DNA from: a virus | Taxonomy: Duplodnaviria; Heunggongvirae; Uroviricota; Caudoviricetes | DNA length: 33,721 bases | Virus record (IMG/VR): IMGVR_UViG_2671180439_000005 | Strand: one strand, 5' to 3' | In this document: positions 301 through 30,371 of the stretch, in pieces | How the letters are laid out: every line of letters begins with the position of its first letter | How positions within the stretch are numbered: the first letter of the stretch is position 1 | Notes under the pieces: model-generated | The model's input: only the letters and a program-made list of their open reading frames with translations | Database searches by the model: none | Told to the model about the DNA's origin: nothing | Made by a program: the position numbers and the translations under genes

Positions 301-1464
301 TCACTCATCATCTTCTGTTTCGTACTCCACATCAGAAAGCCTGACCTCAAGCTCCAAGGACGTCGTGAAGCCGCTATTATTCAGAAAATGTGTCACCTTA
401 GTGATTGTCCAGTCCTGCTCGTCTATGACGCGCTTAAAGCCTGACACTTTAACCGGTGTTTCCGTGTAAATATCTGCCCGACCGGTAGCCAGGCTGATGG
501 AGAACTCCGCAACGCCCCGTTGCAGTTTATCCCACTTCGCCTGAGCGGCGCGCATGGCCTGCGCTTTCGTGGCATATACCGTGGTCAGGGCAAAAACATT
601 GTCAGCCTCACCGGCCATATATTCACCTTCGCGCGCTTCCGGTACTTTTGGCGCTTTCTTCTGCCTGACCGGTTTCGCTTTTGGGTGCTCCAGTGCGCGC
701 AGGTGTTTTTCTTTCTTTTTGCGTTTCAGTTTTACCTTCTGCTTTTGCGGCTTCGGGTCTTTGGTGTGAAGCCACTTTGCCGTTACGCCGGTATAGGCTC
801 CACGGTCAGCAATCGCAAAATGATGACGGTCGCCGTCGCTGCGGGTGATGGTAATCTGCGGGATTTTTTTACCGCTGGCCGTCACCCCCTGCCCCGCTTT
901 GAGAAACAACAGTTTTCCCATTTTTACCGACACCTCACCGCCGTTGCGTTCTGCAAGACGGGTCAGGAATTTCGCATCAGACTCCTGCGACTGGTCGATG
1001 TGCGGGATTTTAATTCCGGCCAGTGACGGAGCGACACTGGCTTCCAGCTTGTTACGGGAGGCTATCGCCTCAACAATCGCACCGAGCGTGGTGTCATGCC
1101 AGGAGCCTTCACGGCGGGAATTGAGCGTCCCGCGGAAATCTGCACTCCGGGCGCGGATGGTAACCACATCCGGCGCGCCCCGGTGTTCAACCTCATCAAC
1201 GGTGAATTTCCCTTTGCATACCAGGGCAAAACCTTTCCAGCCGATATACACCGTCAGGACAGCGCCACGAATCGGTAGCCCGACCTGCCCGTCGGCGTCG
1301 TTCAGTTCAATATCAAGCTGGTCAGCCTCAAAGCCCCGGTTATCCGTCAGGGTCATGCTCATCAGACGGTCGCTGATATTGCCGGTAATATCCCTGCTGT
1401 CGAGCATCAGCATGTAATCCGGCGTCAGCGTACTGCCTGCATCAAATGTCAGCGCATCCAGCAT
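301..1464 (-). CDS. D: Tail protein gpD (387 aa)
   Basis: Track ORF; sequence recognisable as P2 gpD including the lysine-rich KPQKQKVKLKRKKKEK segment; start overlaps U stop (TAATG). Confidence 0.85.
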   Translation of the reverse strand: MLDALTFDAGSTLTPDYMLMLDSRDITGNISDRLMSMTLTDNRGFEADQLDIELNDADGQVGLPIRGAVLTVYIGWKGFALVCKGKFTVDEVEHRGAPDVVTIRARSADFRGTLNSRREGSWHDTTLGAIVEAIASRNKLEASVAPSLAGIKIPHIDQSQESDAKFLTRLAERNGGEVSVKMGKLLFLKAGQGVTASGKKIPQITITRSDGDRHHFAIADRGAYTGVTAKWLHTKDPKPQKQKVKLKRKKKEKHLRALEHPKAKPVRQKKAPKVPEAREGEYMAGEADNVFALTTVYATKAQAMRAAQAKWDKLQRGVAEFSISLATGRADIYTETPVKVSGFKRVIDEQDWTITKVTHFLNNSGFTTSLELEVRLSDVEYETEDDE

Positions 1465-1957: not shown

Positions 1958-4405
1958 TTAACCGTCATGCATCATGCTGGCACGGGCGCGCGCACGTTTA
2001 TCCCGCTCGTATTTTTCGAGCGCATCCTGTAACTGGCGGTCGAGCTGTGTCCCCGGCGCAGTACCACCCGTCAGGCTGATGTGATATTCGTTTTTACTCT
2101 GGTCCACATAAGAGCGGCCAGCCGGTGCCGTGACCGGCTGATAAGCCTGATAGCCTGCATAAGAGCTGGTCGCCGGAATATAACCACCGCTGCCATACGT
2201 GGCGGCTTGAGTTCTGGCGGCGGTCTGGTCAAGTGTGTCTGACTCTTTGTTGATAACACCGAGTTTTTCCAGTACCCAGTCAATACCGCTGCGCAGTTTG
2301 TTGAACGCATTAAGCGGCAGCATCAGCGCGTCAGCCAGTGCCTGCCCGAACATGACCCCCGTGTCACGGCAACTGTTCAGGGTGTCCTGAGTGGCTTTGA
2401 CCGGGGCAATCAGGTTTTTAAACCACTGCCACGCGGCCTGTAACTTTTCGCCCAGCCAGTCGAACACCGGCTTAAGTGGCGTGAACAGTTCCCCCACCGG
2501 CGCAAATGCCGCTTTCAGCCCTTCCACCACACCGCCAAAGAATGCGCTGACAGGCTCCCAGTATTTACGGATAAGCAACGCCCCGGCGACAATGGCGGCC
2601 ACCACGGCCACAACCGGCCAGCTAATCGCCCCGATGGCGGTCATAACAGCACTGCCAACCGTCGTGAAGACTGCCCCCATTGCGCCTGCTGCCGCGATGA
2701 TGGCATTGATGCCAGTGATAACCGGCCAGGCTACAAGACCAATGGCACCGATGATGCCAATAAGCGCCAGCGCGCCACCGACAATGAGGCCGATGGTTGA
2801 CGCCAGTGATTTGTTTTTCTGGATCCAGCCGTCGAGTTTTAACACATACTTTGTGGCCGTCTGCGTGAGCTTACGCAGTGCGCCTTCCTGCTGGTCAAAC
2901 AGGTCTGTCCCCACCGCCTCATAAGCGGACTGAAACTCCTTAAAGTCACCGCCGAGGTTGTCCTGCATGATATTTACCAGCTCGGCAGTCTTCCCGTCTG
3001 AGGCTTTAAACGCAGCGGTCAGTTTGTCCAGCTTTCCGGTTGAGGCGGCAGTCATCAGCACGGCGGCGGCTGAGCTGGCCTCCTCCCCGAAAATAGTTTT
3101 CATGTATTCAGCCTGCTGGGCAGTACCGAGCCGGTTTTTCTCAAAACTGGCCTGCATTTCTTTCAGAATGGTAAATATTGGCCGGGTGTTTCCCTTGCTG
3201 TCTGAGGTTTTCACGCCAAGCTCTTTGAGTGCATCCCATGCTTTTCCCGTCGGTGCCTGCAGGCGGCTTAACACGGCACGGCTTCCCGTCCCCGCCATTG
3301 AGCCTGTGATTTTTGCATCATGCAGCGCCCCGACCATTGCGGCGGTTTCTTCAATGCTGACACCGGCATTTTTTGCCACAGGTGCGGCATAGGTCAGCGC
3401 ATCGCTCATGCCGTCAAAATCGGCGGCGGTTTTGTTCATCGTCATGGAGAGAACATCCCCGATATGAGCGACCTTATCGTTTGAAAGCTGAAAGGCGGAT
3501 TTCATCCCCATCAGCAGGGCGGCGTTTTCTTCCATCGTGCGGCGGTTCGCCAGCGCCATATTCAGCGTGACCGGCGTTGCCGCCTGAATGGCATCAACAT
3601 CCCCACCCGCTTTCGCGATGATTATCTGTGCACCGGCCGCATCATCCGCCGAGGCGGCGGTATTGTCGCCGAGCTGGCGCGCCTGTTTGCGTAGTACGGT
3701 CATTTCGGCGGAGTCTTTTGCCACTCCGAGCACGGCCTGCAATTCTGAGTTTTTCTGCGCAAACTCATAACCGGGCATCAGCAGCTTAACTCCGGCCATC
3801 GTTCCCGCCGCCGCAATCCCCACACCGGCAGCGCCCACTGAGGCCATATTTCCGGCCAGTTCCTTGCCGGCCTGATAACGCTGTTTGACTGCGTTAAGTT
3901 TTGCCTGTTGTGCACTGACACGCGCCAGTGCATCGCGCTGACGGTTAAGCTGTGCGGTGGTTTCACTGATACGGTTTTTCAGCCCCTGCTCATCATGTGC
4001 AAGATTGCGGGTATTAATTCCCACAGCGGCCAGTTCCCGCTGCTGGCGCTTAACGGAATCCGTCAGGCGGTTATATTTCGCCTGTAAGTCCTCCGCCGCA
4101 CGCTTCGCGGATTCCAGCACTTTCGCCTGAGCACGTGTCGGACGTTCAGTGTTTTTAAACTGTGTGGCAAGGGCTTCGGCCTCCTGCCGTGCCTTTTCAA
4201 GTGCATGACCAGTCACGGCGAGCTGTGCGCTGGTCTTGCGAAATCCCTCAATACGGGATGCGTGACCGTTCAGCTCGCGCAGTGATTTTTGTGTTTCCCG
4301 GATATCCCCCGACAGCGACTTGCTCGCTGTGCGGATGGATTTAAACGGGCGGGATGCCTGGTCAACAGCCCTGAGCAATACCTGTAATTTTACATTGTTA
4401 CTCAT
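1958..4405 (-). CDS. T: Tail tape measure protein gpT (815 aa)
   Basis: Track ORF; long coiled-coil N-terminal half, Gly/Ala-rich hydrophobic centre; position between E/E' and U as in P2. Confidence 0.85.
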   Translation of the reverse strand: MSNNVKLQVLLRAVDQASRPFKSIRTASKSLSGDIRETQKSLRELNGHASRIEGFRKTSAQLAVTGHALEKARQEAEALATQFKNTERPTRAQAKVLESAKRAAEDLQAKYNRLTDSVKRQQRELAAVGINTRNLAHDEQGLKNRISETTAQLNRQRDALARVSAQQAKLNAVKQRYQAGKELAGNMASVGAAGVGIAAAGTMAGVKLLMPGYEFAQKNSELQAVLGVAKDSAEMTVLRKQARQLGDNTAASADDAAGAQIIIAKAGGDVDAIQAATPVTLNMALANRRTMEENAALLMGMKSAFQLSNDKVAHIGDVLSMTMNKTAADFDGMSDALTYAAPVAKNAGVSIEETAAMVGALHDAKITGSMAGTGSRAVLSRLQAPTGKAWDALKELGVKTSDSKGNTRPIFTILKEMQASFEKNRLGTAQQAEYMKTIFGEEASSAAAVLMTAASTGKLDKLTAAFKASDGKTAELVNIMQDNLGGDFKEFQSAYEAVGTDLFDQQEGALRKLTQTATKYVLKLDGWIQKNKSLASTIGLIVGGALALIGIIGAIGLVAWPVITGINAIIAAAGAMGAVFTTVGSAVMTAIGAISWPVVAVVAAIVAGALLIRKYWEPVSAFFGGVVEGLKAAFAPVGELFTPLKPVFDWLGEKLQAAWQWFKNLIAPVKATQDTLNSCRDTGVMFGQALADALMLPLNAFNKLRSGIDWVLEKLGVINKESDTLDQTAARTQAATYGSGGYIPATSSYAGYQAYQPVTAPAGRSYVDQSKNEYHISLTGGTAPGTQLDRQLQDALEKYERDKRARARASMMHDG

Positions 4406-4825
4406 TCGTGTTTCCGCTTCGCCGGAGCGCCTTTTCGCGCCATGTGATAAGTTCGGTCAGGCTCATGGGATACAGTTCTGATGGCGGCCAGTGAAATATC
4501 ACTGCCACATCCGCCATCAGGTCATCGACCGAGAGATTTTTCGGAAACGTCACTGCACCGAGTTCGGCGACAAAAAACCGACCACCTTACCGGCCAGCGC
4601 CACAAGGTCAGGCAGTTCCAGCGCGGCGACCTCCTGCTCGGTCAGCATCGGTGCCGTCATGCGCGGCAGCACTTTAATCAGTGCATCGACTTCGGAGTTT
4701 GCGACCGCAGCCAGACTGACACCGCGCAGCGTCCCGGCATTGGGTTTCATCAGCGTGACCTGTTCGATAACCTGCTCACCACGCTTGACCGGATTGTCCA
4801 GGGTAATCACATTTTCTTTGTTCAT
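4398..4825 (-). CDS. E+E': Tail assembly chaperone E+E' made by programmed -1 ribosomal frameshift (about 142 aa)
   Basis: Slippery T_TTT_TTG on the minus strand (plus 4571-4577) in the GFL codons of E; -1 frame continues FVAELGAVTFPKNLSVDDLMADVAVIFHWPPSELYPMSLTELITWREKALRRSGNTNE to TAA at 4398-4400, overlapping the T start at 4405; same architecture as P2 E/E+E'. Confidence 0.7.
4550..4825 (-). CDS. E: Tail assembly chaperone gpE (91 aa)
   Basis: Track ORF; matches P2 gpE; contains slippery heptamer near its 3' end. Confidence 0.8.
   Translation of the reverse strand: MNKENVITLDNPVKRGEQVIEQVTLMKPNAGTLRGVSLAAVANSEVDALIKVLPRMTAPMLTEQEVAALELPDLVALAGKVVGFLSPNSVQ
4571..4577 (-). promoter_or_regulatory. 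-1 frameshift slippery site for E+E'
   Basis: Plus-strand caaaaaa = minus-strand TTTTTTG in the X_XXY_YYZ register of the E reading frame. Confidence 0.65.
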
Positions 4826-5412: not shown

Positions 5413-6603
5413 TTAATTGCTGTTAACCGAAGTGACCAGATTTGCCAGGTATTTATCGGTAATACGCTGGCGCAGGGTCAGGTTTTCGAGAGGAGGCACC
5501 GGTGTATAGTCGTAGTCGATATACAGTTTTCCGGCCTTGAGGGTTTCCGCATCATTGGATTCTTCGCTGAACCAGCAGGTCGCATCCACGATATAGCCGT
5601 TTGTTTTCAGCTCACGGAATTTGGCATTGATGCCGTCAACGATGTCGCGAATCAGCGTTGCGGTGATGGGCTTGTCCACCGCCCACATGTGCGCCTCAGC
5701 CATCGTGTCGGCCAGCACCTGCGCGGTGCGGGTGTAGTTTTCAAAGAGGAACAGCGGGTCATCAGAGCAGGTACGGTTACCCCAGAAGCGGAAACCGTCG
5801 CGGCGAATCAGCGTTGTGACGCCTGACTCGTTAAGCAGGTCAGCATCGGTGCCGGACTCCTGCAAATCCCAGAATACAGAGGCGCTGATGCCGGTAACAC
5901 CGTTCACCCCGACGTTGGACAGCGTTTTATGCCAGCCCTGCTCCTGGTCGATTTTAGCGCGCAGACCCAGCGCACGGGCGGTGGCATACGCGGTGGCGGT
6001 GGTACTGGTGACCGTATCCCATGCGAGGAAATCCGGCCAGATGACCATCAGCTCACGCTGGCTGAAATTCTGGCGGTAGGCTTTCACCTCGGAAATGGTC
6101 TTACATCCCCATGCGCTGATATACCCGAAAGCACGCAGCTTCTGACAGACTGATGCCAGTGCAACAGCCACCTCTTTGGTATCCAGTCCCGGCACGCCGA
6201 GAATACGCGGTTTTACACCGGTTACCGACTCCGCCGCCAGCAGGGCTTTCAGTCCGGTGTACTGACCGTTTTCGTCGGTGGTGCCGATGATATTGGAAAC
6301 GGTCTGCGCGAGTTTCGTTTCTTCGTCTTCGCCGGTGCCGTCTTCCACACGCACGACAACGGTGACCGGTTTTGACTGGTCGGCGATGGCCTGTAACGAT
6401 GCCGCCAGCGTGCCTTTTTTACCGGCCTTCGCAATTGCGCTCTGCACATTGGTAATCAGCACCGGTTTATTGAGGGGGAAGGTTTCCGCATCTGCATCGC
6501 TGGCCGTGCAGACCATGCCGACAATGGCCGTGGATACGGTGGAAATGACGCGGGTGCCGTCGTTAATCTCCAGCACCTGCACGCCATGATGATAGTCACT
6601 CAT
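5413..6603 (-). CDS. FI: Contractile tail sheath protein gpFI (396 aa)
   Basis: Track ORF; sequence recognisable as P2 FI; same length as P2. Confidence 0.85.
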   Translation of the reverse strand: MSDYHHGVQVLEINDGTRVISTVSTAIVGMVCTASDADAETFPLNKPVLITNVQSAIAKAGKKGTLAASLQAIADQSKPVTVVVRVEDGTGEDEETKLAQTVSNIIGTTDENGQYTGLKALLAAESVTGVKPRILGVPGLDTKEVAVALASVCQKLRAFGYISAWGCKTISEVKAYRQNFSQRELMVIWPDFLAWDTVTSTTATAYATARALGLRAKIDQEQGWHKTLSNVGVNGVTGISASVFWDLQESGTDADLLNESGVTTLIRRDGFRFWGNRTCSDDPLFLFENYTRTAQVLADTMAEAHMWAVDKPITATLIRDIVDGINAKFRELKTNGYIVDATCWFSEESNDAETLKAGKLYIDYDYTPVPPLENLTLRQRITDKYLANLVTSVNSN

Positions 6604-6863
6604 CCGTTTAACTCCGTGGTTAATGGGTGCAACTATTTTCTGTTGGGCAGTGCATGAGACGCTATTTGACCTGGCTGGTCAGTGGATGAAACAACAGATA
6701 AAGAAAAGGCGGGCAATCAGCTTGCCTGCCTTGATTTGTACTCTCTCTGTTTCCAACTGACAAATTACGTAACCAAAATTCTGTCAAATCTGACAGCCTG
6801 TTTTGAGCGAAGAGCGGACCTGAGATTGTGGTATGCTAATTTATGGGGAGCAGGTCAATTGTA

Positions 6864-7556
6864 TTAGTTATCTTTTTGCTTTTCTTTATCCCATTTCTTT
6901 GCAGTGGTCTGATACCACTCTTCACGTGCTCGTTGTTCCTCGGCTCTGTCACTTGAATTATAGTTGTCTGTTTTAATTTTTTTGCTTCCCTGGGAAATCG
7001 GCCTCCAGTCTTCTCTAATCTTTTTCATCTGCTCAGCTATCTGTGTCATTGGACTCCTTGCACCTAAGTAGCTAACCCCCTCGAAAGAAGCCATATCATA
7101 AGAATACTCATTCCGCTCTCTTTCAGTTGAGCCCGGCTGTTTAGACCAGCTAATACTAACAGAATAAACTTGATCTTTAATCTGGTCATACTTACAAAGA
7201 CTGCTGTTAAGGGAATGGCCGTTTTTCAATACGCTAACCTTGCTAAATGGTATACCTTCATTTTTTCTATGTTCTGCATTAACCAGTGGGGGATTAAATC
7301 CGACTTCAATATCATAGGCTGGGGCATTTCCGGTATTAGCAATATTGATATCAAAATAAAAAGCAGCCCAAGAATTTGGTTCAAGAGTCACAACGACATG
7401 AGGTTGAACTGATGCGTCAACCATCCTTTTTGTCTCGTCTGCTAATAGCCTTGTTACTCTCCACAAGAAAAATGTAGCAACTGCTGTTAGCAATGCTGCC
7501 AAAGCTGAGATAAGTGTACTTACTGTGTTTATATGCTCTGCGATAAATTCGATCAT
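6864..7556 (-). CDS. Hypothetical protein, 230 aa, single N-terminal TM anchor, Lys/Glu-rich C-terminus (cargo)
   Basis: Track ORF with ATG start and AGGA RBS 6 nt upstream; hydrophobic segment INTVSTLISALAALLTAVATFFLW; AT-rich; no P2 counterpart known to me. Confidence 0.55.
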   Translation of the reverse strand: MIEFIAEHINTVSTLISALAALLTAVATFFLWRVTRLLADETKRMVDASVQPHVVVTLEPNSWAAFYFDINIANTGNAPAYDIEVGFNPPLVNAEHRKNEGIPFSKVSVLKNGHSLNSSLCKYDQIKDQVYSVSISWSKQPGSTERERNEYSYDMASFEGVSYLGARSPMTQIAEQMKKIREDWRPISQGSKKIKTDNYNSSDRAEEQRAREEWYQTTAKKWDKEKQKDN

Positions 7557-8047
7557 AAGTTGTCCTTGGGGGCGTACTAATTGTTTTCAATACTAAAATA
7601 ACGCCGGGCTTGAAAAATTGCACACTTATGGTTCGATTTACCTCAACAGTTAAGGCTTCAACTTCCCCCATGCACCTCACCCAGCCCAAGACTGTATGAG
7701 GTCTGACAAAGAACTTCCTGACACTTGAAAACGAGGCAACGGCTAGGGTTTCTCGTAGGGCAAGGATTGAATACGAAGCCTGTATATTGCTCCGCGAACG
7801 CTGCTGAGGGCAGTTTAAATGTTGGGCGTTTATGTAGCCTTTCACTCACCAGCATGAGTTCAATGTCTGTGAGTTACCGACAACAATATAAAGGGGGTGA
7901 CATCATCATATATCCAAGCTAGAGTCAAATCCTATAACTGGTTTTATGATCAGTGTCAATTGTTTGATTATTGAACGTTTACGAAGCAGCACGGGAGCCA
8001 TATAACTAATGGGCAGGTATAAGCCTGTATCACGAGGAATCAGTAAA

Positions 8048-8227
8048 ATGGCTGATGATAAGACCAAAATCGGTACCCCTGACAATGATTTAATAAGTAT
8101 CAAACAGGATTACGAGAGACGTGATTGGGCTGAAAAGTTTGGAGTTAGCGAGGCCAAACTTGTTCAAGCCGTACAGGCTGTAGGTCATTCGGCTAAGAAA
8201 GTACAGGCATGGCTTAAAGACCATTAA
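8048..8227 (+). CDS. DUF3606-like small protein (59 aa from MADDK; track ORF begins at 8009) (cargo)
   Basis: Pattern MADDKTKIG..DYERRDWAEKFGVSEAKLVQAVQAVGHSAKKVQAWL resembles DUF3606 members as I recall them; GAGGA 9 nt upstream of ATG 8048; hairpin plus T-run directly downstream. Confidence 0.5.
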   Translation: MADDKTKIGTPDNDLISIKQDYERRDWAEKFGVSEAKLVQAVQAVGHSAKKVQAWLKDH

Positions 8228-8233
8228 TATATG

Positions 8234-8260
8234 AGCGCCTTTCTAGGCGCTTTTTTCTTT
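8234..8260 (+). terminator. Rho-independent terminator or attenuator after the DUF3606 gene
   Basis: agcgcc-tttcta-ggcgct stem-loop followed by ttttttcttt. Confidence 0.55.
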
Positions 8261-8279
8261 GTCCTTTGGGAGATGATTT

Positions 8280-8558
8280 ATGGCTAATAATTTATTTATT
8301 ACTTACGACCTCATTAAAACGAAAGATTATGCGGCTGTGTATGATGCAATTAAATCTTTAGGAAATTGGGCTTTAACAACTGAATCGAACTGGTATGTTA
8401 ACTGTAGTTACTCTGCCGAGGATGCAGCCAAAATTGTGAGGGCGGTCATGGATAGTGATGATAAGCTTATTGTTGTAGACGCAACCAATAACTCAGCTTA
8501 TTGGTACAATCTCTCAGATGAAGTTAGTAACCAAATTCTGACTGAGTGGAACAAGTAA
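8280..8558 (+). CDS. Hypothetical protein, 92 aa (cargo)
   Basis: Track ORF with ATG and GGGAG RBS 7 nt upstream; followed by a strong GC-stem terminator; no family recognised. Confidence 0.5.
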   Translation: MANNLFITYDLIKTKDYAAVYDAIKSLGNWALTTESNWYVNCSYSAEDAAKIVRAVMDSDDKLIVVDATNNSAYWYNLSDEVSNQILTEWNK

Positions 8559-8587
8559 TTAAAGGGGGTGGGTACCCCCCTTTAATT
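8557..8587. terminator. Bidirectional rho-independent terminator between convergent cargo genes
   Basis: aattaaaggggg-tgggtac-ccccctttaatt inverted repeat with U-rich flank on both strands. Confidence 0.6.
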
Positions 8588-9032
8588 CAGAAACTATCAT
8601 GATTGAAACATTAAATATACTGGGTTAATTCTTTCATCCTTGCTCCCTTGCTATATGTCCTGAAAGCGTCCTTTTTAGCCTTCTGCTCAGTATGTCCGGT
8701 AATGGCACGCAGCGGACATTGCTGGCTGAGTTGAGGGTCCGCTGTGAGCGAGGAGCGGAAGTTCAAAATTTTTCATAACGACTGATGAGAACAACACTAA
8801 TTTTCGAACTTACTGGTACAAAAAATTTCCATAATCTTATAAAAAGTGGGGGAGTCAGTATGGTTCAATATTTGAAATACTACTTGTTTATGTTGAGAAA
8901 ATTTTAAGCTTGACCTGGTTACCAGATTACAGCCGATCAACACCTAGACATCGAAACTTAGAGGTACCTCTGCTTTCAGGCATACTTAGAGGTCTATGTC
9001 TAAACCACCCGCTATGCAGGTGGTTGATTTAC

Positions 9033-10568
9033 CTAATTCGGCCTTGCTTGAATAGCAGACTCTATAGCTGCTCGGAATTCCGGGGCATCAGCTCTTAATC
9101 GATAATCATCAAGGGTATTGAATATTTCTAGAAGTTCTCTACGATAATGCGGCGGTGCTGAATTACCTTCGCCTCTAGTGGTGAAAATTAATAATGAGTC
9201 AGCGACGTCTTTTAATTTTTTATTCCTTTTCAATCTAATATAACAAGATACAACTATATCAAGAATATGTTTTCTAGATTTCAAGGTGAGTTTTTTATTA
9301 GGCATAACCAACTGCAGCATAGCACCAAGTAATTTGGTAGCCTCTTTTGAAATATAATGAAGATCGAAATTATCTATTTCTTTATTTTCTTGAGGAATCT
9401 CCTTTTCATCTATCCATTCGCATTGTTCTGCCCAATCTGTAGCGACGCTAAATAAATGACAGAGAAGGAAGTGAAAAGGTGTTTCCCATTCACCACTATA
9501 TTCATCCGATTGCCTATTCATATTCTTTATAATTTTCCTTGCAAAATATGAATAGTAATGCAACCATAAATGATACTGAAGACCCTGGTGAATACCTTCA
9601 TGAACCATAATTTCAAACAGCGTGACACCTGAGTAAATAGGACATTTATATTTTGAAGCATCGTAATAGGAACCTAAAGACTTATTAAGTGCAGCAATAA
9701 TTTTTTCATCTTCATCTAACCTCCAGTAGAGATAGTCACCGATATCACGGTATATTGCTAAATCAGCTGCAAACTTAGCATTGGAAAAGAAAAAATGTAA
9801 TATACGGTTGTTTTTTGGAATCAATAAACGATGTCCTCGACTAACGTTAAGATTATTTTTAAGCTCAACATATAGACGACTGTTAGGTGAACCAAGTAAT
9901 GCACTGATAAAATTAGAAGTAAAGTCAGAACGAACTATTGGCTCGATCTTGATTAACTCAAGGCAGAGGGATGGGTGCGCAAGTGCAAAGTGATTGGTAA
10001 GTTCAGGTGATGAGACAATATTTAACAATGCTTCATGTGCATGTTCAGCAGCTGTCTCGCGATTAGAGATGCGGAGATTGTTAGCTATCTTATCACAAAG
10101 TCGATTCTTCACAGGTCTATCAATTATTGATATTAATTTTTCTAGTTGAGGTGCCAACAATTGTGCCAGATCGTCGTATCGTTTAGTAAGGTGCAAATTT
10201 TCCACTAACTCTAGAAATATCCCTGTTCTTCCAATTGAGAGTTTAGGGTTTTTTAAGCGAAATAAAATGTAAATAGCAACTGCGAGTGATATCAGGTATA
10301 CGGCACTTGAACTATCTAATCCCCATTTCCAGGGGCCAAAGCTAAAATATAAGTCTAGTGATTTTAAAGCCGGTGCAAACACCAAATAATTGCTTAGTAA
10401 GAATGCAAACCCAACAATTACCCAATCCCACCACGCTAGGCAGAACCTTAAACGTAGTCGAGCGTTTGGCGTAATAAGGGCCCATACAGCAGCAATAACG
10501 CCCAATATGGTAAGTAGACTTGATGTATCAATTTTGGTTGGCGGTGTCATAATTTCTCTTGTAATCAT
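9033..10568 (-). CDS. Hypothetical membrane protein, 511 aa, three N-terminal TM helices plus large helical soluble domain (cargo)
   Basis: Track ORF with ATG start; hydrophobic segments at about aa 17-32, 42-64 and 86-103; about 35% GC; alternative start at Met7; no family recognised. Confidence 0.6.
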   Translation of the reverse strand: MITREIMTPPTKIDTSSLLTILGVIAAVWALITPNARLRLRFCLAWWDWVIVGFAFLLSNYLVFAPALKSLDLYFSFGPWKWGLDSSSAVYLISLAVAIYILFRLKNPKLSIGRTGIFLELVENLHLTKRYDDLAQLLAPQLEKLISIIDRPVKNRLCDKIANNLRISNRETAAEHAHEALLNIVSSPELTNHFALAHPSLCLELIKIEPIVRSDFTSNFISALLGSPNSRLYVELKNNLNVSRGHRLLIPKNNRILHFFFSNAKFAADLAIYRDIGDYLYWRLDEDEKIIAALNKSLGSYYDASKYKCPIYSGVTLFEIMVHEGIHQGLQYHLWLHYYSYFARKIIKNMNRQSDEYSGEWETPFHFLLCHLFSVATDWAEQCEWIDEKEIPQENKEIDNFDLHYISKEATKLLGAMLQLVMPNKKLTLKSRKHILDIVVSCYIRLKRNKKLKDVADSLLIFTTRGEGNSAPPHYRRELLEIFNTLDDYRLRADAPEFRAAIESAIQARPN

Positions 10569-10925
10569 TGTTTGATGTACATCGGAATGGTTTCAAATGA
10601 TAAGGCTCTGTGTATGATAAATCAGAACGTTATGCACGTTTAAGAATACCCTCAAAATGGCACATTTTAATCTAAAAATGGCATTAAATGGACACTACTT
10701 GTCCACACAAGTTTTTTTTCAGTCGGCTTTTCCCGACTAACGTTTGGGGTGTCCTATTGAAACTACGCTCCTTATAAAAGCAATACTGTAGCTGTATGTT
10801 TATCAAAGGGGTTGTGCTAACCAAATTACTGAAGCCTAAGGTCCGCTCTTGGCACAGAGCGGACTGTCAGATTAGGCTTTACTCTGTGCCATAGATATGT
10901 AATCTCACACCAGAGCTTATACAAC

Positions 10926-11453
10926 TTATTGCGGCATTTCCGGCCATTCAGGATTTGCAGGATCCACACGACTGACCAGAACGCTGTAGCGTTCCCAGAT
11001 CTCCAGCCGTGTGCGCTCCTCATCTGTTGCCATGTTCAGTCTGACCGCGCGCTCCAGCGGCAAAATCACGGATTCAGCATCTGCTAGAAGTCTGGCTTTC
11101 CGATTTTCTGCCTGCTGCTGCAATTCCTCCGCCGTATAAATTCGTTTAATCACTGTGCCGTCCTTAAACATCCAGTTCCCTGAAATGTCCGCCCGTCGGT
11201 TAGCGGTAATATCCGGCACTTCAACAACACTTAATCCATCTGGTCTGATAGCTGTCACATCCTTTTCCACATAGCGGATAATATTATCTTTGTCGTACGC
11301 TATTTTTATCGTGTCATCAGCAAAATACTTTTGTTCTTCGTACCAGTTCTTACCATCTTCTGAAAAAAACCAGACAACATCAAAACCCTTTGTCAATTGA
11401 TATTGTTCAACCGTTTTTGGATTACCCGCCGTAATATTTTTTAAATGCTGCAT
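10926..11453 (-). CDS. G: Tail fibre assembly protein gpG (175 aa)
   Basis: Track ORF; recognisable as P2 gpG; directly downstream of H. Confidence 0.8.
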
Positions 11454-16102: not shown

Positions 16103-16145
16103 GATTACTTAACTGGCAAAAAAACATCCTCACTAATTGGAGCCA

Positions 16146-17237
16146 ATGGATACACGCATGTCAGACATTCTAATTACTTATGATGAACGGAAAGATAAAT
16201 TTGAGTCCTATGCCCTTACTCTTAAATCGTTATTAACCACGTTAATTCGCAATGAAAAAATTTCAATTCACTCACTTGAATCAAGAGTTAAAACAAAAAA
16301 AAGCCTTGAAGGTAAGATTAATAAAAAGGGAAAATACAAGTCTATAGATGATATTACTGATATCGTTGGTATCAGGATCATCACACATTATGCTGATGAT
16401 GTTGATAAGATAGCTGCTATAGTTGAAAAGGAGTTCACCATTGACCAAGAGAACTCTATTGATAAAAGAACCTCAATTGCGCCTGATAAATTTGGTTACC
16501 TATCACTTCATTATATAGTAACTTTAAACTCAACCAGAACAAACTTAAAAGAATATGAAGTATATAAAAACATCAAAGCCGAATTACAAATACGATCAAT
16601 CCTTCAGCATGCCTGGGCGGAGATTGAACACGACATTGGTTATAAGTCGGCCACAGGACTGCCTAATGAAATAAGAAGATACTTTTCACGCTTAGCTGGT
16701 CTTTTAGAAATGGCCGATGATGAATTTATTAAAATCAGAAAAAAGATTTCTGAACGGCAGAAAGAGGTTGCAAAAGAACTAGAGCAAGGAACTAGTGATT
16801 CAGTTTTAGATATTTTCACTTTGGATGAATTCTTAAACACAAGTCGAGTTATGAGTGAACTTTCAGAAGAGATAAAAGAAAAAACAGGAATCACAGTACA
16901 TGGCCGATACAAGGATAAAGATTTGGGATACCTACTAAATGGTTTAAACCTAGCCAACATAACTACAATAGAACAACTCAATCAAAAACTCTCACAAATG
17001 AAAAAGCAGATAGTAGATAGAATATTCTGCTTCGGAGAACCATTTATTAATTATTACAGAGAAACCACCATGCCAAAAGAAGCTCTTTTGAGTTATTTAT
17101 GTCAAATTATCGTTGCGTTTCAAAACTCACCTTCGTTAGAATCTGAATTTAATAACAAAGCAGGTTTAAATCTGAAAAACAGAGATATCTCCGATTTTTT
17201 CTCGAATATAAGAGAAAACATAAGCACACAACCTTAG
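16146..17237 (+). CDS. Fused toxic small alarmone synthetase-like protein (RelA/SpoT nucleotidyltransferase N-domain plus C-terminal regulatory domain), CapRel-like (cargo)
   Basis: Synthetase motifs SRVKTKKSLEGK, DITDIVGIRIITHY, YLSLHYIV, ELQIRSILQHAWAEIEHDIGYK; about 363 aa from ATG 16146 (track ORF starts at TTG 16137); AT-rich, opposite strand to flanking late genes. Confidence 0.7.
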   Translation: MDTRMSDILITYDERKDKFESYALTLKSLLTTLIRNEKISIHSLESRVKTKKSLEGKINKKGKYKSIDDITDIVGIRIITHYADDVDKIAAIVEKEFTIDQENSIDKRTSIAPDKFGYLSLHYIVTLNSTRTNLKEYEVYKNIKAELQIRSILQHAWAEIEHDIGYKSATGLPNEIRRYFSRLAGLLEMADDEFIKIRKKISERQKEVAKELEQGTSDSVLDIFTLDEFLNTSRVMSELSEEIKEKTGITVHGRYKDKDLGYLLNGLNLANITTIEQLNQKLSQMKKQIVDRIFCFGEPFINYYRETTMPKEALLSYLCQIIVAFQNSPSLESEFNNKAGLNLKNRDISDFFSNIRENISTQP

Positions 17238-23691: not shown

Positions 23692-25464
23692 ATGACCATC
23701 ACCACAGACACCACTCTTTTGCACGACCCGCGTCGTCAGGCGGCGCTGCTGTACTGGCAGGGGTTTTCCGTGCCGCAGATTGCCGCCATGTTGCAGATGA
23801 AACGCCCGACGGTGCAGAGCTGGAAACAGCGCGACGGCTGGGACAGCGTTGCCCCCATCAGCCGTGTCGAAATGAGTCTGGAAGCGCGGCTGACCCAGCT
23901 CATCATCAAACCGCAGAAAACCGGCGGTGACTTCAAGGAAATTGACCTGCTCGGACGCCAGATTGAACGACTGGCACGGGTAAACCGCTACAGCCAGACC
24001 GGCAACGAGGCAGACCTTAATCCGAACATCGCTAACCGCAACAAAGGCGGGCGGCGCAAACCGAAAAAGAATTTTTTCAGTGACGAGGCTATCGAAAAGC
24101 TGGAGCAGATTTTCTTTGAGCAGTCTTTCGAATATCAGTTGCACTGGTATCGCGCCGGGCTTGAGCACCGCATCCGCGATATCCTGAAATCCCGCCAGAT
24201 TGGCGCGACGTTTTATTTTTCCCGCGAGGCGCTGCTGCGCGCCCTGAAAACCGGTCATAACCAGATTTTTCTGTCGGCCAGTAAAACGCAGGCGTATGTG
24301 TTCCGCGAATACATCATCGCCTTTGCCCGGCTGGTTGACGTTGACCTGACCGGTGACCCGATTGTCCTGGGCAATAACGGCGCAAAACTGATTTTTCTCG
24401 GCACCAACTCCAACACCGCGCAGAGCCATAACGGCGACCTGTACGTCGACGAGATTTTCTGGATACCGAATTTTCAGGTACTGCGTAAGGTGGCATCAGG
24501 TATGGCCTCACAGAGTCACCTGCGCTCGACCTATTTCTCCACCCCGTCCACGCTGGCGCACGACGCCTACCCGTTCTGGTCGGGTGAACTGTTCAACCGG
24601 GGACGCGCCAGCGCCGCCGAACGCGTGGAAATCGACGTCAGTCATAACGCTCTTGCCGGTGGGCTTCTCTGTGCGGACGGTCAGTGGCGGCAGATTGTCA
24701 CCATTGAGGACGCCCTGAAAGGTGGCTGCACGCTGTTCGACATTGAGCAGCTTAAACGCGAAAACAGCGCCGACGATTTTAAAAACCTGTTCATGTGTGA
24801 ATTTGTTGACGACAAGGCGTCGGTGTTCCCGTTCGAGGAGCTGCAACGCTGCATGGTCGACACGCTGGAAGAATGGGAAGACTATGCGCCGTTTGCCGCG
24901 AATCCGTTCGGCTCCCGCCCGGTCTGGATTGGTTACGACCCGTCACACCGTGGCGACAGTGCCGGATGCGTGGTGCTGGCACCGCCGGTGGTGGCCGGTG
25001 GCAAATTCAGAATACTTGAGCGTCACCAGTGGAAAGGCATGGACTTTGCCACCCAGGCTGAATCCATCCGCAAACTCACCGAAAAATACAACGTCGAATA
25101 CATCGGAATTGATGCCACCGGCCTCGGTGTCGGCGTGTTCCAGCTCGTTCGCTCGTTCTATCCCGCCGCACGCGATATCCGCTACACGCCGGAAATGAAA
25201 ACCGCAATGGTGCTCAAGGCAAAAGACGTTATTCGCCGTGGCTGTCTGGAATATGACGTCAGCGCCACCGACATCACCAGCTCGTTTATGGCTATCCGCA
25301 AGACCATGACCAGCAGCGGACGCAGCGCCACCTATGAGGCCAGCCGCAGCGAGGAAGCCAGCCACGCCGACCTCGCCTGGGCGACCATGCACGCCCTGTT
25401 AAATGAGCCACTCACCGCCGGTATCAGCACCCCGCTGACATCCACCATTCTGGAGTTTTACTGA
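23692..25464 (+). CDS. P: Terminase large (ATPase) subunit gpP (590 aa)
   Basis: Start MTITTDTTLLHDPRRQAALLYWQGFSVPQIAAML at Met11 of the track ORF, matching P2 gpP; divergent from O. Confidence 0.85.
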   Translation: MTITTDTTLLHDPRRQAALLYWQGFSVPQIAAMLQMKRPTVQSWKQRDGWDSVAPISRVEMSLEARLTQLIIKPQKTGGDFKEIDLLGRQIERLARVNRYSQTGNEADLNPNIANRNKGGRRKPKKNFFSDEAIEKLEQIFFEQSFEYQLHWYRAGLEHRIRDILKSRQIGATFYFSREALLRALKTGHNQIFLSASKTQAYVFREYIIAFARLVDVDLTGDPIVLGNNGAKLIFLGTNSNTAQSHNGDLYVDEIFWIPNFQVLRKVASGMASQSHLRSTYFSTPSTLAHDAYPFWSGELFNRGRASAAERVEIDVSHNALAGGLLCADGQWRQIVTIEDALKGGCTLFDIEQLKRENSADDFKNLFMCEFVDDKASVFPFEELQRCMVDTLEEWEDYAPFAANPFGSRPVWIGYDPSHRGDSAGCVVLAPPVVAGGKFRILERHQWKGMDFATQAESIRKLTEKYNVEYIGIDATGLGVGVFQLVRSFYPAARDIRYTPEMKTAMVLKAKDVIRRGCLEYDVSATDITSSFMAIRKTMTSSGRSATYEASRSEEASHADLAWATMHALLNEPLTAGISTPLTSTILEFY

Positions 25465-26498
25465 TGAGTAAGAAAAAAGGGAAAACACCGCAGCCAGCGG
25501 TGAAAACAATGACTGCCAGCGCCCCGAAAATGGAGGCATTCACCTTTGGTGAGCCGGTGCCGGTACTCGACCGCCGTGATATTCTGGATTACGTCGAGTG
25601 CATCAGTAACGGCAGATGGTATGAGCCACCGGTCAGCTTTACCGGTCTGGCAAAAAGCCTGCGTGCTGCCGTGCATCACAGCTCACCGATTTACGTCAAA
25701 CGTAATATTCTGGCCTCAACGTTTATCCCGCACCCGTGGCTTTCCCAGCAGGATTTCAGCCGCTTTGTGCTGGATTTTCTGGTGTTCGGTAATGCGTTTC
25801 TGGAAAAGCGCTACAGCACTACCGGTAAGGTCATCAGACTGGAAACCTCACCGGCAAAATATACCCGCCGTGGCGTGGAGGAGGATGTTTACTGGTGGGT
25901 GCCATCCTTCAACGAGCCGACACCTTTCGCGCCCGGCTCCGTGTTTCACCTGCTGGAGCCGGATATCAATCAGGAGCTGTACGGCCTGCCGGAATATCTC
26001 AGCGCCCTTAACTCTGCCTGGCTGAATGAGTCGGCCACGCTGTTCCGCCGCAAGTATTACGAAAACGGCGCACATGCCGGATACATCATGTACGTCACCG
26101 ATGCCGTGCAGGATCGCAACGATATCGAAATGCTTCGCGAAAACATGGTGAAGTCGAAAGGCCGCAACAACTTTAAAAACCTGTTTCTCTACGCCCCACA
26201 GGGAAAAGCCGACGGTATTAAAATTATCCCGCTCAGTGAAGTGGCAACGAAGGACGATTTTTTTAATATCAAAAAAGCCAGCGCCGCAGACCTGCTGGAC
26301 GCGCACCGCATCCCTTTTCAGTTGATGGGCGGCAAGCCGGAGAACGTCGGGTCGCTGGGTGATATTGAGAAAGTGGCAAAGGTCTTTGTCCGCAATGAGC
26401 TTATCCCGTTACAGGACAGGATCCGCGAGATAAACGGCTGGCTCGGTCAGGAGGTCATCCGCTTTAAAAACTACTCACTGGACACTGACAACGGCTGA
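25464..26498 (+). CDS. Q: Portal protein gpQ (344 aa)
   Basis: Track ORF; ATG overlaps the P stop (TGATG); same length as P2 Q. Confidence 0.85.
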   Translation: MSKKKGKTPQPAVKTMTASAPKMEAFTFGEPVPVLDRRDILDYVECISNGRWYEPPVSFTGLAKSLRAAVHHSSPIYVKRNILASTFIPHPWLSQQDFSRFVLDFLVFGNAFLEKRYSTTGKVIRLETSPAKYTRRGVEEDVYWWVPSFNEPTPFAPGSVFHLLEPDINQELYGLPEYLSALNSAWLNESATLFRRKYYENGAHAGYIMYVTDAVQDRNDIEMLRENMVKSKGRNNFKNLFLYAPQGKADGIKIIPLSEVATKDDFFNIKKASAADLLDAHRIPFQLMGGKPENVGSLGDIEKVAKVFVRNELIPLQDRIREINGWLGQEVIRFKNYSLDTDNG

Positions 26499-26503
26499 AC
26501 ATC

Positions 26504-26527
26504 GCCGCCTGCGGGCGGCTTTTTTAC
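26504..26527 (+). terminator. Rho-independent terminator after Q
   Basis: gccgcc-tgcg-ggcggc hairpin followed by tttttta. Confidence 0.6.
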
Positions 26528-26667: not shown

Positions 26668-26686
26668 GTGCTATCCCCGCCTCGCC
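26668..26686 (-). other. cos cohesive-end site
   Basis: Reverse complement GGCGAGGCGGGGATAGCAC differs at one position from the 19-nt P2 cohesive end GGCGAGGCGGGGAAAGCAC as I recall it; located between Q and the A-side cargo, as cos is in a P2 prophage. Confidence 0.55.
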
Positions 26687-26901
26687 TGCCCGCTTTATGG
26701 GTCGGTTTTAATGCAGGTGCACGAATACACCGGAGGCGCGCCGGCACTGGTGGCGCTCAGACGCAACAGGGGAGGAAAACGCATGCAATTGAATGCATTT
26801 CTAGGCACACCTAAAAATGAAAAAATGTTATGACAATTAATCATTTTAAACACACTGATTAAGGGTAGAATTCTCCTAGTAAAATCATAGAAAAACCGCT
26901 A

Positions 26902-27831
26902 TCAAACCAGGCTTTTGCCTTGCTTCATTTTTTTAGATGAGTCTAAAAATTTGAAATTATCATTAGATGAAAATATTCTTTCTGCGGTATGCCGAATGAC
27001 TGAAGTATTGAAGACCGCAGCCTGCTCCTCATTACAACTGAATACACCCTCATGACCATCAAACTCGCCCGCCAAAAGAAGGTTTTTTGATACTGGGAAC
27101 AAAACTAAAGTGTCTTTTACACCAAACCCGGGGGAATAAGGGCCTCGTGCTAATTCAGGATTAGTCCACATTAAGCAAACTGGGTTATCTGAAGTTATAA
27201 ATGACCCTTGCCCATCAGATATGGTCATAAGTGACCAGTTGCGTTGATGCAACAACTTGGTGATAACAGGTACACATTTCATTTCCATATCTATCATGAA
27301 CTCTCTGATTACATTGATTTCGAAATTATCCCCATCCACAAAATTTTTAATTTTTTCGTAAGCGAGATCATATGGCAAAGACTCACCCATTTCTTTCTCA
27401 TAAGCTAATTTGCAATCGTCCCAACGCTCAGCCGAACTAACTGAGGATTTCATGATAAACTTTGCTATTTGTTTCAATGGAGATGATAAATGTTCTCGCT
27501 GAGCAGGCGTACGTATTGCCAATAAGGAAATAAACTCCAGAATAACATCTTTGGTTTCGCCTGAAAACTCGCCCCCCTCCTCAAGTTTTCTTAAATGAGT
27601 AGCGACACTGCCTTCAAACTCTGCAAGAGAACTCTCGAGATAGTTTGGGTCAACTCCATCCAATTCTAATCGGTTGAAATCTCTAACCCCCCCGACATTG
27701 CGAGTATTACTCTCAAAGGTTTTGCGCTCCTTTAAATCTATTACAGTTAATTTTGATTTTTTCCCCCCATTACTTGTAAACCCTTTCAAATAACATTGGG
27801 ATAAAAAATGATGATGCCTTGCAACACTCAT
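26902..27831 (-). CDS. DUF4238-family protein (309 aa from ATG; cargo at the tin/old slot)
   Basis: N-terminal HHHFLSQCYLKGF signature typical of DUF4238 as I recall it; ATG at Met15 of the track ORF with GGAG RBS (the track start is GTG); AT-rich. Confidence 0.6.
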   Translation of the reverse strand: MSVARHHHFLSQCYLKGFTSNGGKKSKLTVIDLKERKTFESNTRNVGGVRDFNRLELDGVDPNYLESSLAEFEGSVATHLRKLEEGGEFSGETKDVILEFISLLAIRTPAQREHLSSPLKQIAKFIMKSSVSSAERWDDCKLAYEKEMGESLPYDLAYEKIKNFVDGDNFEINVIREFMIDMEMKCVPVITKLLHQRNWSLMTISDGQGSFITSDNPVCLMWTNPELARGPYSPGFGVKDTLVLFPVSKNLLLAGEFDGHEGVFSCNEEQAAVFNTSVIRHTAERIFSSNDNFKFLDSSKKMKQGKSLV

Positions 27832-27934
27832 ACTCAGCTCCGTTATGGCTATAATCGCATAAATAATAAGCACTTATATTGCAATCATCTAGTTAAATAC
27901 ACAATATTTATGACTCCGAAATTTCATTAAATCA

Positions 27935-30106
27935 CTATTGATAGGTTTTACCAATTGGTGCCAGCTCGAAATGGATGCGTGGAATCTGCGAACGTTCAGC
28001 CTTTGTCATCCGCCCTGATGGCGCTATCTGGTACGGTTTTAATGGTTCGCAGTTTCTTTGTTGCCAATTCGGTCTCGGTGCACCATGTTTTAATGCACTC
28101 CTGAGCACCGTCACAACTTCCGGGTCATCCCATCCGATAACACCACTATCAACCAGATTTAACACCGCTGCGGCATGCTCAGACGGTGTAGGGTGCATAA
28201 CCGGAACGTCACCGCCGGTGAACTTTCCACAGTTATTGACAGGACTCCGAGGCGCGGCGATGCCGCTTTTTAAAGTCAAAGGCTCAACGACCGGCACTTT
28301 CGGAACAATGCGCCAGTCCGTCGTTCTGGTGATATGAATATGACGCGCGCCGAGATGCGGCGCGTAAATGCCGACCACTCTCTCGACTTCTTCCTCGTAC
28401 TCGTTAACTTCATCCGACGGACTACGGGCAACCCTGACAGTCTGACAATCGCGCGGAACATTTGCCCCACCCTGCGCGCTGATATACAACGCAAAATCAC
28501 CACTGTCTGCGGCAGCGCGTGCAGCCTCGACGCGTTCGTCAAACTCATCAGCAATGCTGACGCCGCGAGGCAATTTGCGTAGTTCACGGTAAGCCCCCAT
28601 TGTCGGCAGGCCAACCGTTTTAAATTGCGGAATGCGCCACGTTGACGCCCATGCGGTAACAGCCGCGGCAGTGTCTTTCAGCGGCCTGCCGGTATCGTTA
28701 TCGAGCTGACCATCCAGTGCATAGCCATCGATGTTTTTTGAGATGTATTTCGCGATATATCCCGCAGCACCGCCCCGGTTAAGGTGTTTTGCCTGAAAAC
28801 GGTTTCGCGCGGCTCCTCTTTCGTCACCATCCTCTTTGAGCGCATAGCGACGCATGATTTCGATAATCTGGTTACGCTGGCGTGGATTACAAAAAAGCAT
28901 CATATGCCAGTGCGGCGTTCCGTCGTGGTGTGGCTCGACGACTCGCAAACCGTAGACCTGTAAATCATTATCCTTGAATGCCGTGCGCATCAGGCTCCAG
29001 ATGCGGCAGAGATAACGCTGCGCATCCTTTGGATTAAATGCCTCATCATTCCAGCCGTGATTTAGCTGGACGGTTTTACTTTCGCCTTTTCCGACCTGAC
29101 GTGTCGGGTGATACTTTGACGGCGCGGTCAGAGTGATAAACATCCCCACATCACCCTCTGCGGCGGCGTAACGCTCAATACCGGCGATGGTGTTCATCAG
29201 CTCCATCCGGCGAATTTCAGGATTAGAAATACTGCCCATCACCTTACTGATAAGGTCGATGCGCTCGCCGGTTTCCCTGTTTTCGAGGTCACACGATTTA
29301 AGAAATTCCAGATTTGCCTGGCGGCGTGCACACACATCACGAATGGCATGTTTACTGGCATAAGGAGAACGGTCTTTATTGACCTCCCCGACAGCAATCA
29401 GTAACGCCTCATGCCAGCGCATACGCTGGCCTTTAAGCTGATGAGTCCACCACTCATCGTTAAACAGACGGGCAATGGCAGAATATGCCTGCCTCGTGGT
29501 CATCTGTCCTTTACGGTATTTTTTCCAGTAGAGAGGGGAAATATTGAAAGCACGTGCAGCGCCAGCAACATGACCATACAGATGCGCCTGCGCCTCATCT
29601 GTAAACAGCGATTCTTTCTCGCCATGTGCATCAACCCATGCATCGCAGAGTTCCTCATACATCATGAAAAGCTGCGATGAGATACGGGCGGCAAACTTTT
29701 TCAGCTCCTTGTCATTCATCCCCGGCAGACGCGCATAATGGTCACGCTCTGCCAGAAACAGCAACGACGCGTCGGTGTTCATTTCATGGCGCTGATTCAC
29801 GCGCTCAATACGCGGCCATAAACGGCGCTGAAAAGTGGATGTGAGGAAATAAAACCCGTGCACCGGGCTTTTATTGCGCCGGATGTAGTCATAGCGTGAA
29901 GTAAACAGCGAGCGCAAAAAGTAAGGCAGGCGATTAATCGTGGATAAAACACCTTGCACCTGACGCATCTCGTCACGTGTAAGGGGTCTTTCGCGCCCGA
30001 CGGCCTCGCGTGGCGCGTTCCATGCATAAGCACCGGTAAACGTCTCACCGGTGCCTGAGGCAAATGCTGACGGAGGGACAAAACGCCCGGAGGCTTTAAC
30101 GGCCAT
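27935..30106 (-). CDS. A: Replication initiation protein gpA (rolling-circle nickase, 723 aa from ATG)
   Basis: From Met15 of the track ORF (MAVKASGRFVPPSAFA...) the sequence tracks P2 gpA; the last roughly 80 residues differ from P2 A as recalled. Confidence 0.85.
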   Translation of the reverse strand: MAVKASGRFVPPSAFASGTGETFTGAYAWNAPREAVGRERPLTRDEMRQVQGVLSTINRLPYFLRSLFTSRYDYIRRNKSPVHGFYFLTSTFQRRLWPRIERVNQRHEMNTDASLLFLAERDHYARLPGMNDKELKKFAARISSQLFMMYEELCDAWVDAHGEKESLFTDEAQAHLYGHVAGAARAFNISPLYWKKYRKGQMTTRQAYSAIARLFNDEWWTHQLKGQRMRWHEALLIAVGEVNKDRSPYASKHAIRDVCARRQANLEFLKSCDLENRETGERIDLISKVMGSISNPEIRRMELMNTIAGIERYAAAEGDVGMFITLTAPSKYHPTRQVGKGESKTVQLNHGWNDEAFNPKDAQRYLCRIWSLMRTAFKDNDLQVYGLRVVEPHHDGTPHWHMMLFCNPRQRNQIIEIMRRYALKEDGDERGAARNRFQAKHLNRGGAAGYIAKYISKNIDGYALDGQLDNDTGRPLKDTAAAVTAWASTWRIPQFKTVGLPTMGAYRELRKLPRGVSIADEFDERVEAARAAADSGDFALYISAQGGANVPRDCQTVRVARSPSDEVNEYEEEVERVVGIYAPHLGARHIHITRTTDWRIVPKVPVVEPLTLKSGIAAPRSPVNNCGKFTGGDVPVMHPTPSEHAAAVLNLVDSGVIGWDDPEVVTVLRSALKHGAPRPNWQQRNCEPLKPYQIAPSGRMTKAERSQIPRIHFELAPIGKTYQ

Positions 30107-30371
30107 ATGAGCCAAAAGCCTCTGAACAACGCTTGCTGAGTTGCTCAACCTGCGCGTTTAAATCAGCAAAAGACTTTGCGCTTCCGGTCAGAATATCGTG
30201 ATGCATCAGGCCGGAAACAAGCTGGCTTAATTTCGGGTAATAACCAACCACCGCCAGCCATTCCTGACCGGCGTTTTTACCGCTTTCAGCTCTCTTTTTC
30301 TCGTGGAGAATAAACTGAAAGCTGTCACTGGTAACGACATAACGTTCGCCAATTTCAATACGAATACTCAT
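30096..30371 (-). CDS. Hypothetical early-operon protein (91 aa)
   Basis: Track ORF with ATG start; translationally coupled to neighbours; in the block of small ORFs P2 carries between B and A. Confidence 0.55.
   Translation of the reverse strand: MSIRIEIGERYVVTSDSFQFILHEKKRAESGKNAGQEWLAVVGYYPKLSQLVSGLMHHDILTGSAKSFADLNAQVEQLSKRCSEAFGSYGR

Follow-up and report, generated by a model that had tools for sequence, protein, structure and literature searches.

The gene at 26902-27831 (-) is very probably an Rst_DUF4238 single-gene anti-phage cargo, protecting the lysogen, and with it the prophage, from competitors, T7 in particular. Throughout, the window denotes the whole 33,721-nt stretch of IMG/VR record IMGVR_UViG_2671180439_000005 (Caudoviricetes) that was analyzed. 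The locus is real and had been interpreted correctly, and it is already known: the exact protein (WP_001515549) is catalogued at the same hotspot, in the Rousset table of P2-hotspot contents (PMC9122126). Nothing is new at the locus level, and the interest lies in the mechanism of DUF4238 as a large one-gene defense family. An annotation of the prophage can list, in its old/tin slot, an anti-T7 defense gene of a validated type.

Foreign cargo between gene A and cos of a P2-like prophage

The window is a whole P2-like prophage in the orientation opposite to the usual P2 map, as judged by the 96-97% identity of the rest of the window to Peduovirus (P2-like) genomes and by the integrase at its end. 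The segment singled out in the original prediction, 26687-27934, corresponds to an entire slot, from the edge of the cos core to 27935, where gene A ends with its stop codon. On one side stands the conserved anchor gene of the replication endonuclease gpA, 27935-30148 (-), which matches PF05840 (Phage_GPA, E = 7e-123) and bears the PGAP name "replication endonuclease." The conserved anchor gene of the other side is that of the portal protein gpQ, an ORF at 25464-26498 (+) annotated by PGAP as "phage portal protein" in identical DNA, with the terminase gene P beside it and a terminator-like hairpin after it (26504-26519). The 19-nt cohesive-end sequence of the cos core, GGCGAGGCGGGGATAGCAC, gave a single match, at 26668-26686 (-), with 0.00 expected by chance, and the P2 and P4 sequences in Rousset Table S2 show the same cos core (PMC9122126). 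Base by base, GGCGAGGCGGGGATAGCAC differs at one position from the P2/P4 core (...GGGGAAAGCAC).

These flanks, gpA against the portal and terminase genes, place the slot at the P2 old/tin position; together with the cos core and the published description of the locus (PMC9122126), they bear out the earlier placement of the gene in the tin/old slot between A and cos. The gpA-gpQ locus next to cos is a defense hotspot of P2-like phages, where P2 itself has old and tin, and the same hotspot also houses non-defense cargo such as partition systems and cytolethal distending toxin (PMC9122126). In the window, the conserved genes gpA and gpQ of a P2-like element thus enclose a variable insert beside cos.

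The expectation of a single AT-rich gene held as well. Only one substantial ORF is present within the slot, both in the ORF list and in the PGAP annotation of identical DNA, and the GC content is 0.37-0.40 over 26800-27999 compared with 0.53-0.58 in both flanks. Downstream of the DUF4238 stop codon, the inserted cassette ends in an AT-rich 3' tail, delimited by composition and sequence at 26790-26901 (-). Homology to other P2-like phages ends ca. 220-300 nt into a query starting at 26500, which sets the start of the cassette at ca. 26720-26800. The DUF4238 gene is horizontally acquired cargo, foreign to the P2-like backbone.

Gene model and expression

The mechanical ORF list gave 26902-27873 (-), with a GTG start at 27873 and 323 aa. 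The true start is the ATG at 27831, giving a protein of 309 aa (WP_001515549.1; 26902-27831, -), because a GGAG lies 6 nt upstream of it, because the 309-position PADLOC and PHROG profiles align from the first to the last residue, and because PGAP places the same 930-nt CDS in identical DNA. The gene model is thus backed by Pfam, PADLOC, identity to the pFR101 protein described below, and identical annotated DNA.

Between the gene A stop and the DUF4238 start there is an AT-rich spacer of 103 nt, 27832-27934 (-), that carries the ribosome binding site (RBS; the GGAG 6 nt before the ATG). Some 30 nt of this spacer (TCATAAATATTGTGTATTTAACTAGATGATT) and the RBS region are common to the natively expressed pFR101 clone. 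No sigma-70 site was detected upstream of the gene when promoters were sought by consensus; its own promoter presumably lies within the 27832-27934 spacer. By analogy with pFR101, we assume that the gene would be expressed in the lysogen.

A DUF4238 protein close to an allele with a known phenotype

The protein matches Pfam DUF4238 (PF14022) with an E value of 5e-39 and a score of 134.8 bits (cut-off, 27), over profile positions 2-280 of 281 (279/281), so that the Pfam search proposed as a check returned the family that had been predicted from the sequence. The match to the PADLOC model PDLC03000 (DUF4238-Pers) is stronger still, with an E value of 1.8e-219 and 725 bits over positions 1-309 of 309. 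Residues 7-18, HHFLSQCYLKGF, fit exactly the HHxxxQxYLxxF signature on which the family assignment had been based. All of the family motifs are visible in the alignment, namely, the N-terminal HH[FY]xxxQxYLxxF, the R-D-F-N loop, and the F-I-[ST]-S-D-x-P strand. Neither Old (ATPase plus Toprim) nor Tin was matched, the DUF4238 models being the only ones in Pfam and PADLOC at E values up to 1.

[quoted passage not shown] This gene, from E. coli TA007 and carried by pFR101, was scored as a one-gene system, and its resistance was seen from the native promoter; the phenotype was published for a panel of only eight phages, with protection against T7 alone (PMC9122126). Taking the pFR101 reference protein from Table S2 of the same work (PMC9122126), we found that 284 of the 309 residues (92%) of the window protein are identical and 302 of 309 are similar, in a gap-free alignment. 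The statement in the original prediction that a single-gene DUF4238 defense has been reported from P2-like hotspots was therefore accurate, and so was the name, since Rst_DUF4238 is in use in a 2024 defense-system survey and the PADLOC match is to DUF4238-Pers. T7 protection by the window allele itself would be expected from its sequence and by analogy with the 92%-identical TA007 allele, while the 25 substitutions that separate them could shift the range of phages blocked.

The system known as Rst_DUF4238 in DefenseFinder and DUF4238-Pers in PADLOC, as represented by pFR101, resembles the window gene in family, in length (309 aa), and in its gap-free identity; it is likewise a single gene in the gpA-cos/gpQ slot of a P2-like prophage, with the RBS region and part of the spacer in common. 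It differs in the DNA directly upstream, where gpA abuts the cassette in the window and other sequence is found in the TA007 clone. Several complete E. coli genomes have loci 100% identical to the window DNA, with WP_001515549.1 as the product.

Conserved positions and predicted structure

Conservation within the family was taken from an alignment of 257 homologs that share 27-100% identity (median, 38%) with the window protein; a column counted as conserved at 93% or more. At this threshold there were 26 columns, and all 26 are kept in the window protein. These positions are H7, H8, Y14, L15, F18, R50, D51, F52, N53, E66, E73, P109, R112, E183, R197, W199, F211, D215, P217, L220, P234, G235, T241, P246, G255, and N275. 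The near-invariant polar residues number 13 and comprise two His (H7 and H8), three Arg (R50, R112, and R197), two Asp (D51 and D215), three Glu (E66, E73, and E183), two Asn (N53 and N275), and one Thr (T241). The poorly conserved parts are a helical stretch at ca. residues 113-175 and the last 45 residues at the C terminus. All 25 of the differences from the pFR101 protein lie in variable columns (mean entropy of 2.2 bits versus 1.5 overall), and the first 86 residues show none.

The protein is soluble and consists of a single domain. It has no transmembrane segment, with a highest 19-residue hydropathy of 1.09, and its pI is 6.0. The AlphaFold model, for which 45 homologs were used, is confident, with a pLDDT of 89.5 and a pTM of 0.86, and displays a short N-terminal helix and a beta-hairpin, a six-helix region at 64-195, and a beta-rich C-terminal part that includes one helix. 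A Foldseek search of this model against all PDB chains gave no fold match (best E value, 0.36), and phmmer and profile searches of the PDB sequences returned nothing, or noise at E values of ca. 0.7. The window protein has no match in NCBIfam, and scanning the 45 aligned family members against Pfam at E values up to 5 revealed no recurrent second family. In the literature retrieved for DUF4238, Rst_DUF4238, PF14022, and IPR025332, no mechanism is reported, and the matches to PF14022 are Plasmodium gene names.

Several well-known catalytic families were compared by eye with the conserved positions. The motifs of PD-(D/E)xK nucleases, HNH, histidine phosphatases (RHG), HIT, 2H phosphoesterases, nucleotidyltransferases, and ADP-ribosyltransferases do not fit them, and all of these families were rejected for that reason and because such common folds would surface in the fold searches.

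Possible modes of action

The pattern of conserved polar residues alone leads us to infer, with low confidence, that the protein may be a cytoplasmic enzyme, complete in itself, whose fold has yet to be solved. The 13 near-invariant polar residues (H7 through N275), supplied by the HH[FY] motif at the N terminus, the RDFN loop, and the [ST]-S-D-x-P strand, would then form its active site. The combination of His, Asp, and Glu with Arg is suggestive of metal-assisted chemistry on a phosphate-bearing substrate, for example, a nucleotide or nucleic acid. Phage sensing or specificity would most likely reside in the variable helical lobe (ca. 113-175) and in the C-terminal 45 residues. That DUF4238 represents a new enzyme fold without a solved relative, whose conserved His, Arg, Asp, and Glu residues perform a chemistry novel to phage defense, and that the window allele might differ from the tested one in the phages that it blocks, is a tentative proposal that we regard as possible but doubtful. 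If true, the pair of alleles, differing only in the variable lobes, would be a ready tool to map the phage-sensing part. Combined with the map of the variable regions, the list of 13 polar residues amounts to a concrete mutagenesis plan for the mechanism.

A serious rival to a catalytic role, if a rather unlikely one taken by itself, is a defense protein that acts by stoichiometric binding or blocking of a T7 protein or of the incoming DNA, with the conserved polar residues serving folding, oligomerization, or ligand binding. It agrees with the fact that no search recognized a catalytic fold or motif. The presumed target of P2 Tin is the single-strand-binding protein of T-even phages. Tin is a precedent in the same P2 slot, and the narrow published protection, limited to T7 within the panel, suits a specific protein-protein interaction (PMC9122126). 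Against it, the 13 polar residues persist at 93% or more down to homologs of 27% identity, which is more typical of a catalytic center than of a surface that follows the rapid evolution of phage targets, and the HH[F], D-F-x-R, and S-D-x-P motifs are partly retained in the very distant branch of Smp131 (see below). The family is also very large, with 7,778 clusters at 50% identity spread across phyla, which makes a T7-specific binder unlikely as its general role.

Distribution and integrity of the allele

Among 5,426 complete E. coli genomes, the gene appeared at 99.8-100% identity in 14, always chromosomal and in single copy, while the neighboring cos flank was present in 1,604; these numbers point to a rare and recently spread cargo. 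The complete E. coli genomes carry the window allele and not that of TA007. Phage pro483 also carries a DUF4238 gene, with 99.2% identity. In E. coli 258E (NZ_CP053855.1), an identical DUF4238 cassette belongs to a prophage inserted between pflB and pflA.

This distribution bears on a very unlikely reading of the locus, in which the gene is cargo with a non-defense role, or an inactive allele, and the defense label of TA007 is not transferable to it. The exact allele does differ from the one tested, and the hotspot holds non-defense cargo too (PMC9122126), but the protein is 92% identical, gap-free, to one with a demonstrated phenotype, its frame is intact behind a good RBS, every conserved position is kept, and the 14 genomes in which it is conserved at 99.8-100% come from different hosts and sources.

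A stand-alone gene

DUF4238 in the window is a one-gene system without an obligatory partner. We collected 44 loci of relatives in other species (Vibrio, Pseudomonas, Shewanella, Halomonas relatives, Verrucomicrobiota, and others), 41 of which were analyzed by ORF calling followed by clustering of all the neighbors. In these 41 loci, no family was recurrent beside the DUF4238 gene. The commonest neighbor, a small helix-turn-helix-like ORF, was found in only four of them, at varying distances. Among the best 150 family representatives listed, 147 were single-stretch matches, mostly of ca. 300-340 aa. The stand-alone character follows from the lack of a recurrent neighbor, from these single-stretch relatives, and from the fact that the ORF in the cos flank is not specific.

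Indeed, a two-gene system formed by DUF4238 and a small cos-side ORF, either 26711-26833 (+) or 26695-26853 (-), is scarcely credible: one contig is given as "DUF4238 + hypothetical" (WP_001515549 + WP_053285577) in the Rousset table (PMC9122126) and the phage pro483 annotation has a 40-aa ORF (ORF12) at the site, but WP_053285577 is also found with unrelated cargo and WP_001515549 also alone, the small ORFs lie mostly within the conserved GC-rich cos flank that is common to P2-like phages with other cargo, they have no PHROG match and are not called by PGAP in identical DNA, the TA007 gene was counted as a one-gene system, and the 41 loci lack a conserved neighbor. The small cos-side ORFs were accordingly rejected as partners, on the grounds of PGAP, PHROG, and the association of WP_053285577, which corresponds to a small ORF of the conserved cos flank, with unrelated cargo.

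Matches to defense proteins were found among the 150 nearest neighbors of the loci in other species, including PARIS AriA, Gabija GajA, Thoeris ThsA, DpdF, and PDC-S39, among others. Within E. coli, a paralog with 50% identity is located on an integrative element, with GmrSD and a subunit of a type I restriction system as neighbors, and another, with 47% identity, lies inside a different phage-like element. This genomic context fits a mobile, defense-associated, stand-alone gene.

Comparison with other systems

The old and tin genes of P2 occupy the same slot and follow the same logic as the window gene, as AT-rich cos-side cargo that excludes competing phages (PMC9122126). They are unrelated to it in sequence, and P2 has three genes (old, tin, and orf91) where the window has one. 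The phages excluded also differ, T7 for DUF4238 versus a broad range for old-tin (PMC9122126).

The only match to the model in the viral structure library was gp44 of the Stenotrophomonas phage Smp131, a P2-like member of the Peduoviridae, annotated as DUF4238 (Foldseek E value of 7e-11, probability 1.00). It shares with the window protein the HH[F], D-F-x-R, F-I-x-S-D-x-P, and P-x-S motifs, and its gene follows the integrase, within the accessory region of this P2-like phage. The two proteins have ca. 12% identity, and their neighbors differ, with an SRAP peptidase next to gp44. We consider them homologous because Foldseek matches them and because both are assigned to the same Pfam family. 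A profile-profile alignment with the Smp131 subfamily, which is tiny (six relatives found), recovered the S-D-x-P strand only, with a weak probability of 9.8%. In the Smp131 genome (NC_023588, 30939-32551), gp44 is directly followed by the SOS response-associated peptidase (SRAP), and SRAP-domain proteins were among the nearest DUF4238 neighbors in two of the 41 genome loci. The annotated start of gp44 looks truncated, since longer homologs start upstream with a conserved RKHHF motif.

A 2024 study of TIR-domain defense systems in E. coli mentions a DUF4238 domain among validated anti-phage systems, without naming in its text the system that has it (PMC11350192). These systems need the TIR NADase domain for defense, and the DUF4238 portion was not dissected (PMC11350192). 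The window gene differs from them in having neither a TIR domain nor a TIR neighbor.

Other variable regions of the prophage

Outside the gpA-gpQ locus, a gene at 16137-17237 (+) codes for a RelA_SpoT-domain protein of 366 aa (PF04607, E = 1.9e-21), the N-terminal ca. 210 residues of which resemble the small alarmone synthetases YjbM and YwaC (PDB, E values of ca. 1e-15), while the C-terminal ca. 150 are unassigned. It is located on the opposite strand between the baseplate gene V and gene S, i.e., in the orf30 slot of P2, and its match to PADLOC was weak (PDC-S33 only, 59 bits). We consider it a candidate defense or toxin gene of the toxic alarmone synthetase type. In the 258E prophage, the orf30 slot is filled by an "ATP-binding protein" instead.

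A variable block of ca. 4 kb (ca. 6604-10925) extends from the tail sheath gene (5413-6603, -) to the tail-fiber assembly gene (10926-11453, -), corresponding to the Z/fun slot of P2. It contains ORFs of 230 aa (6864-7556, -), 142 aa (7417-7845, -), 92 aa (8280-8558, +), and 511 aa (9033-10568, -). The last of these matches only an unannotated PHROG (phrog_13820), its product having no sequence match in Pfam, PADLOC, NCBIfam, or the PDB, and the 258E prophage lacks this gene. The late-control gene D of 258E (3377-4540 of the 258E locus) has an internal stop and is given as a pseudogene in the annotation, whereas gene D of the window (301-1464, -) is an intact ORF of 387 aa.
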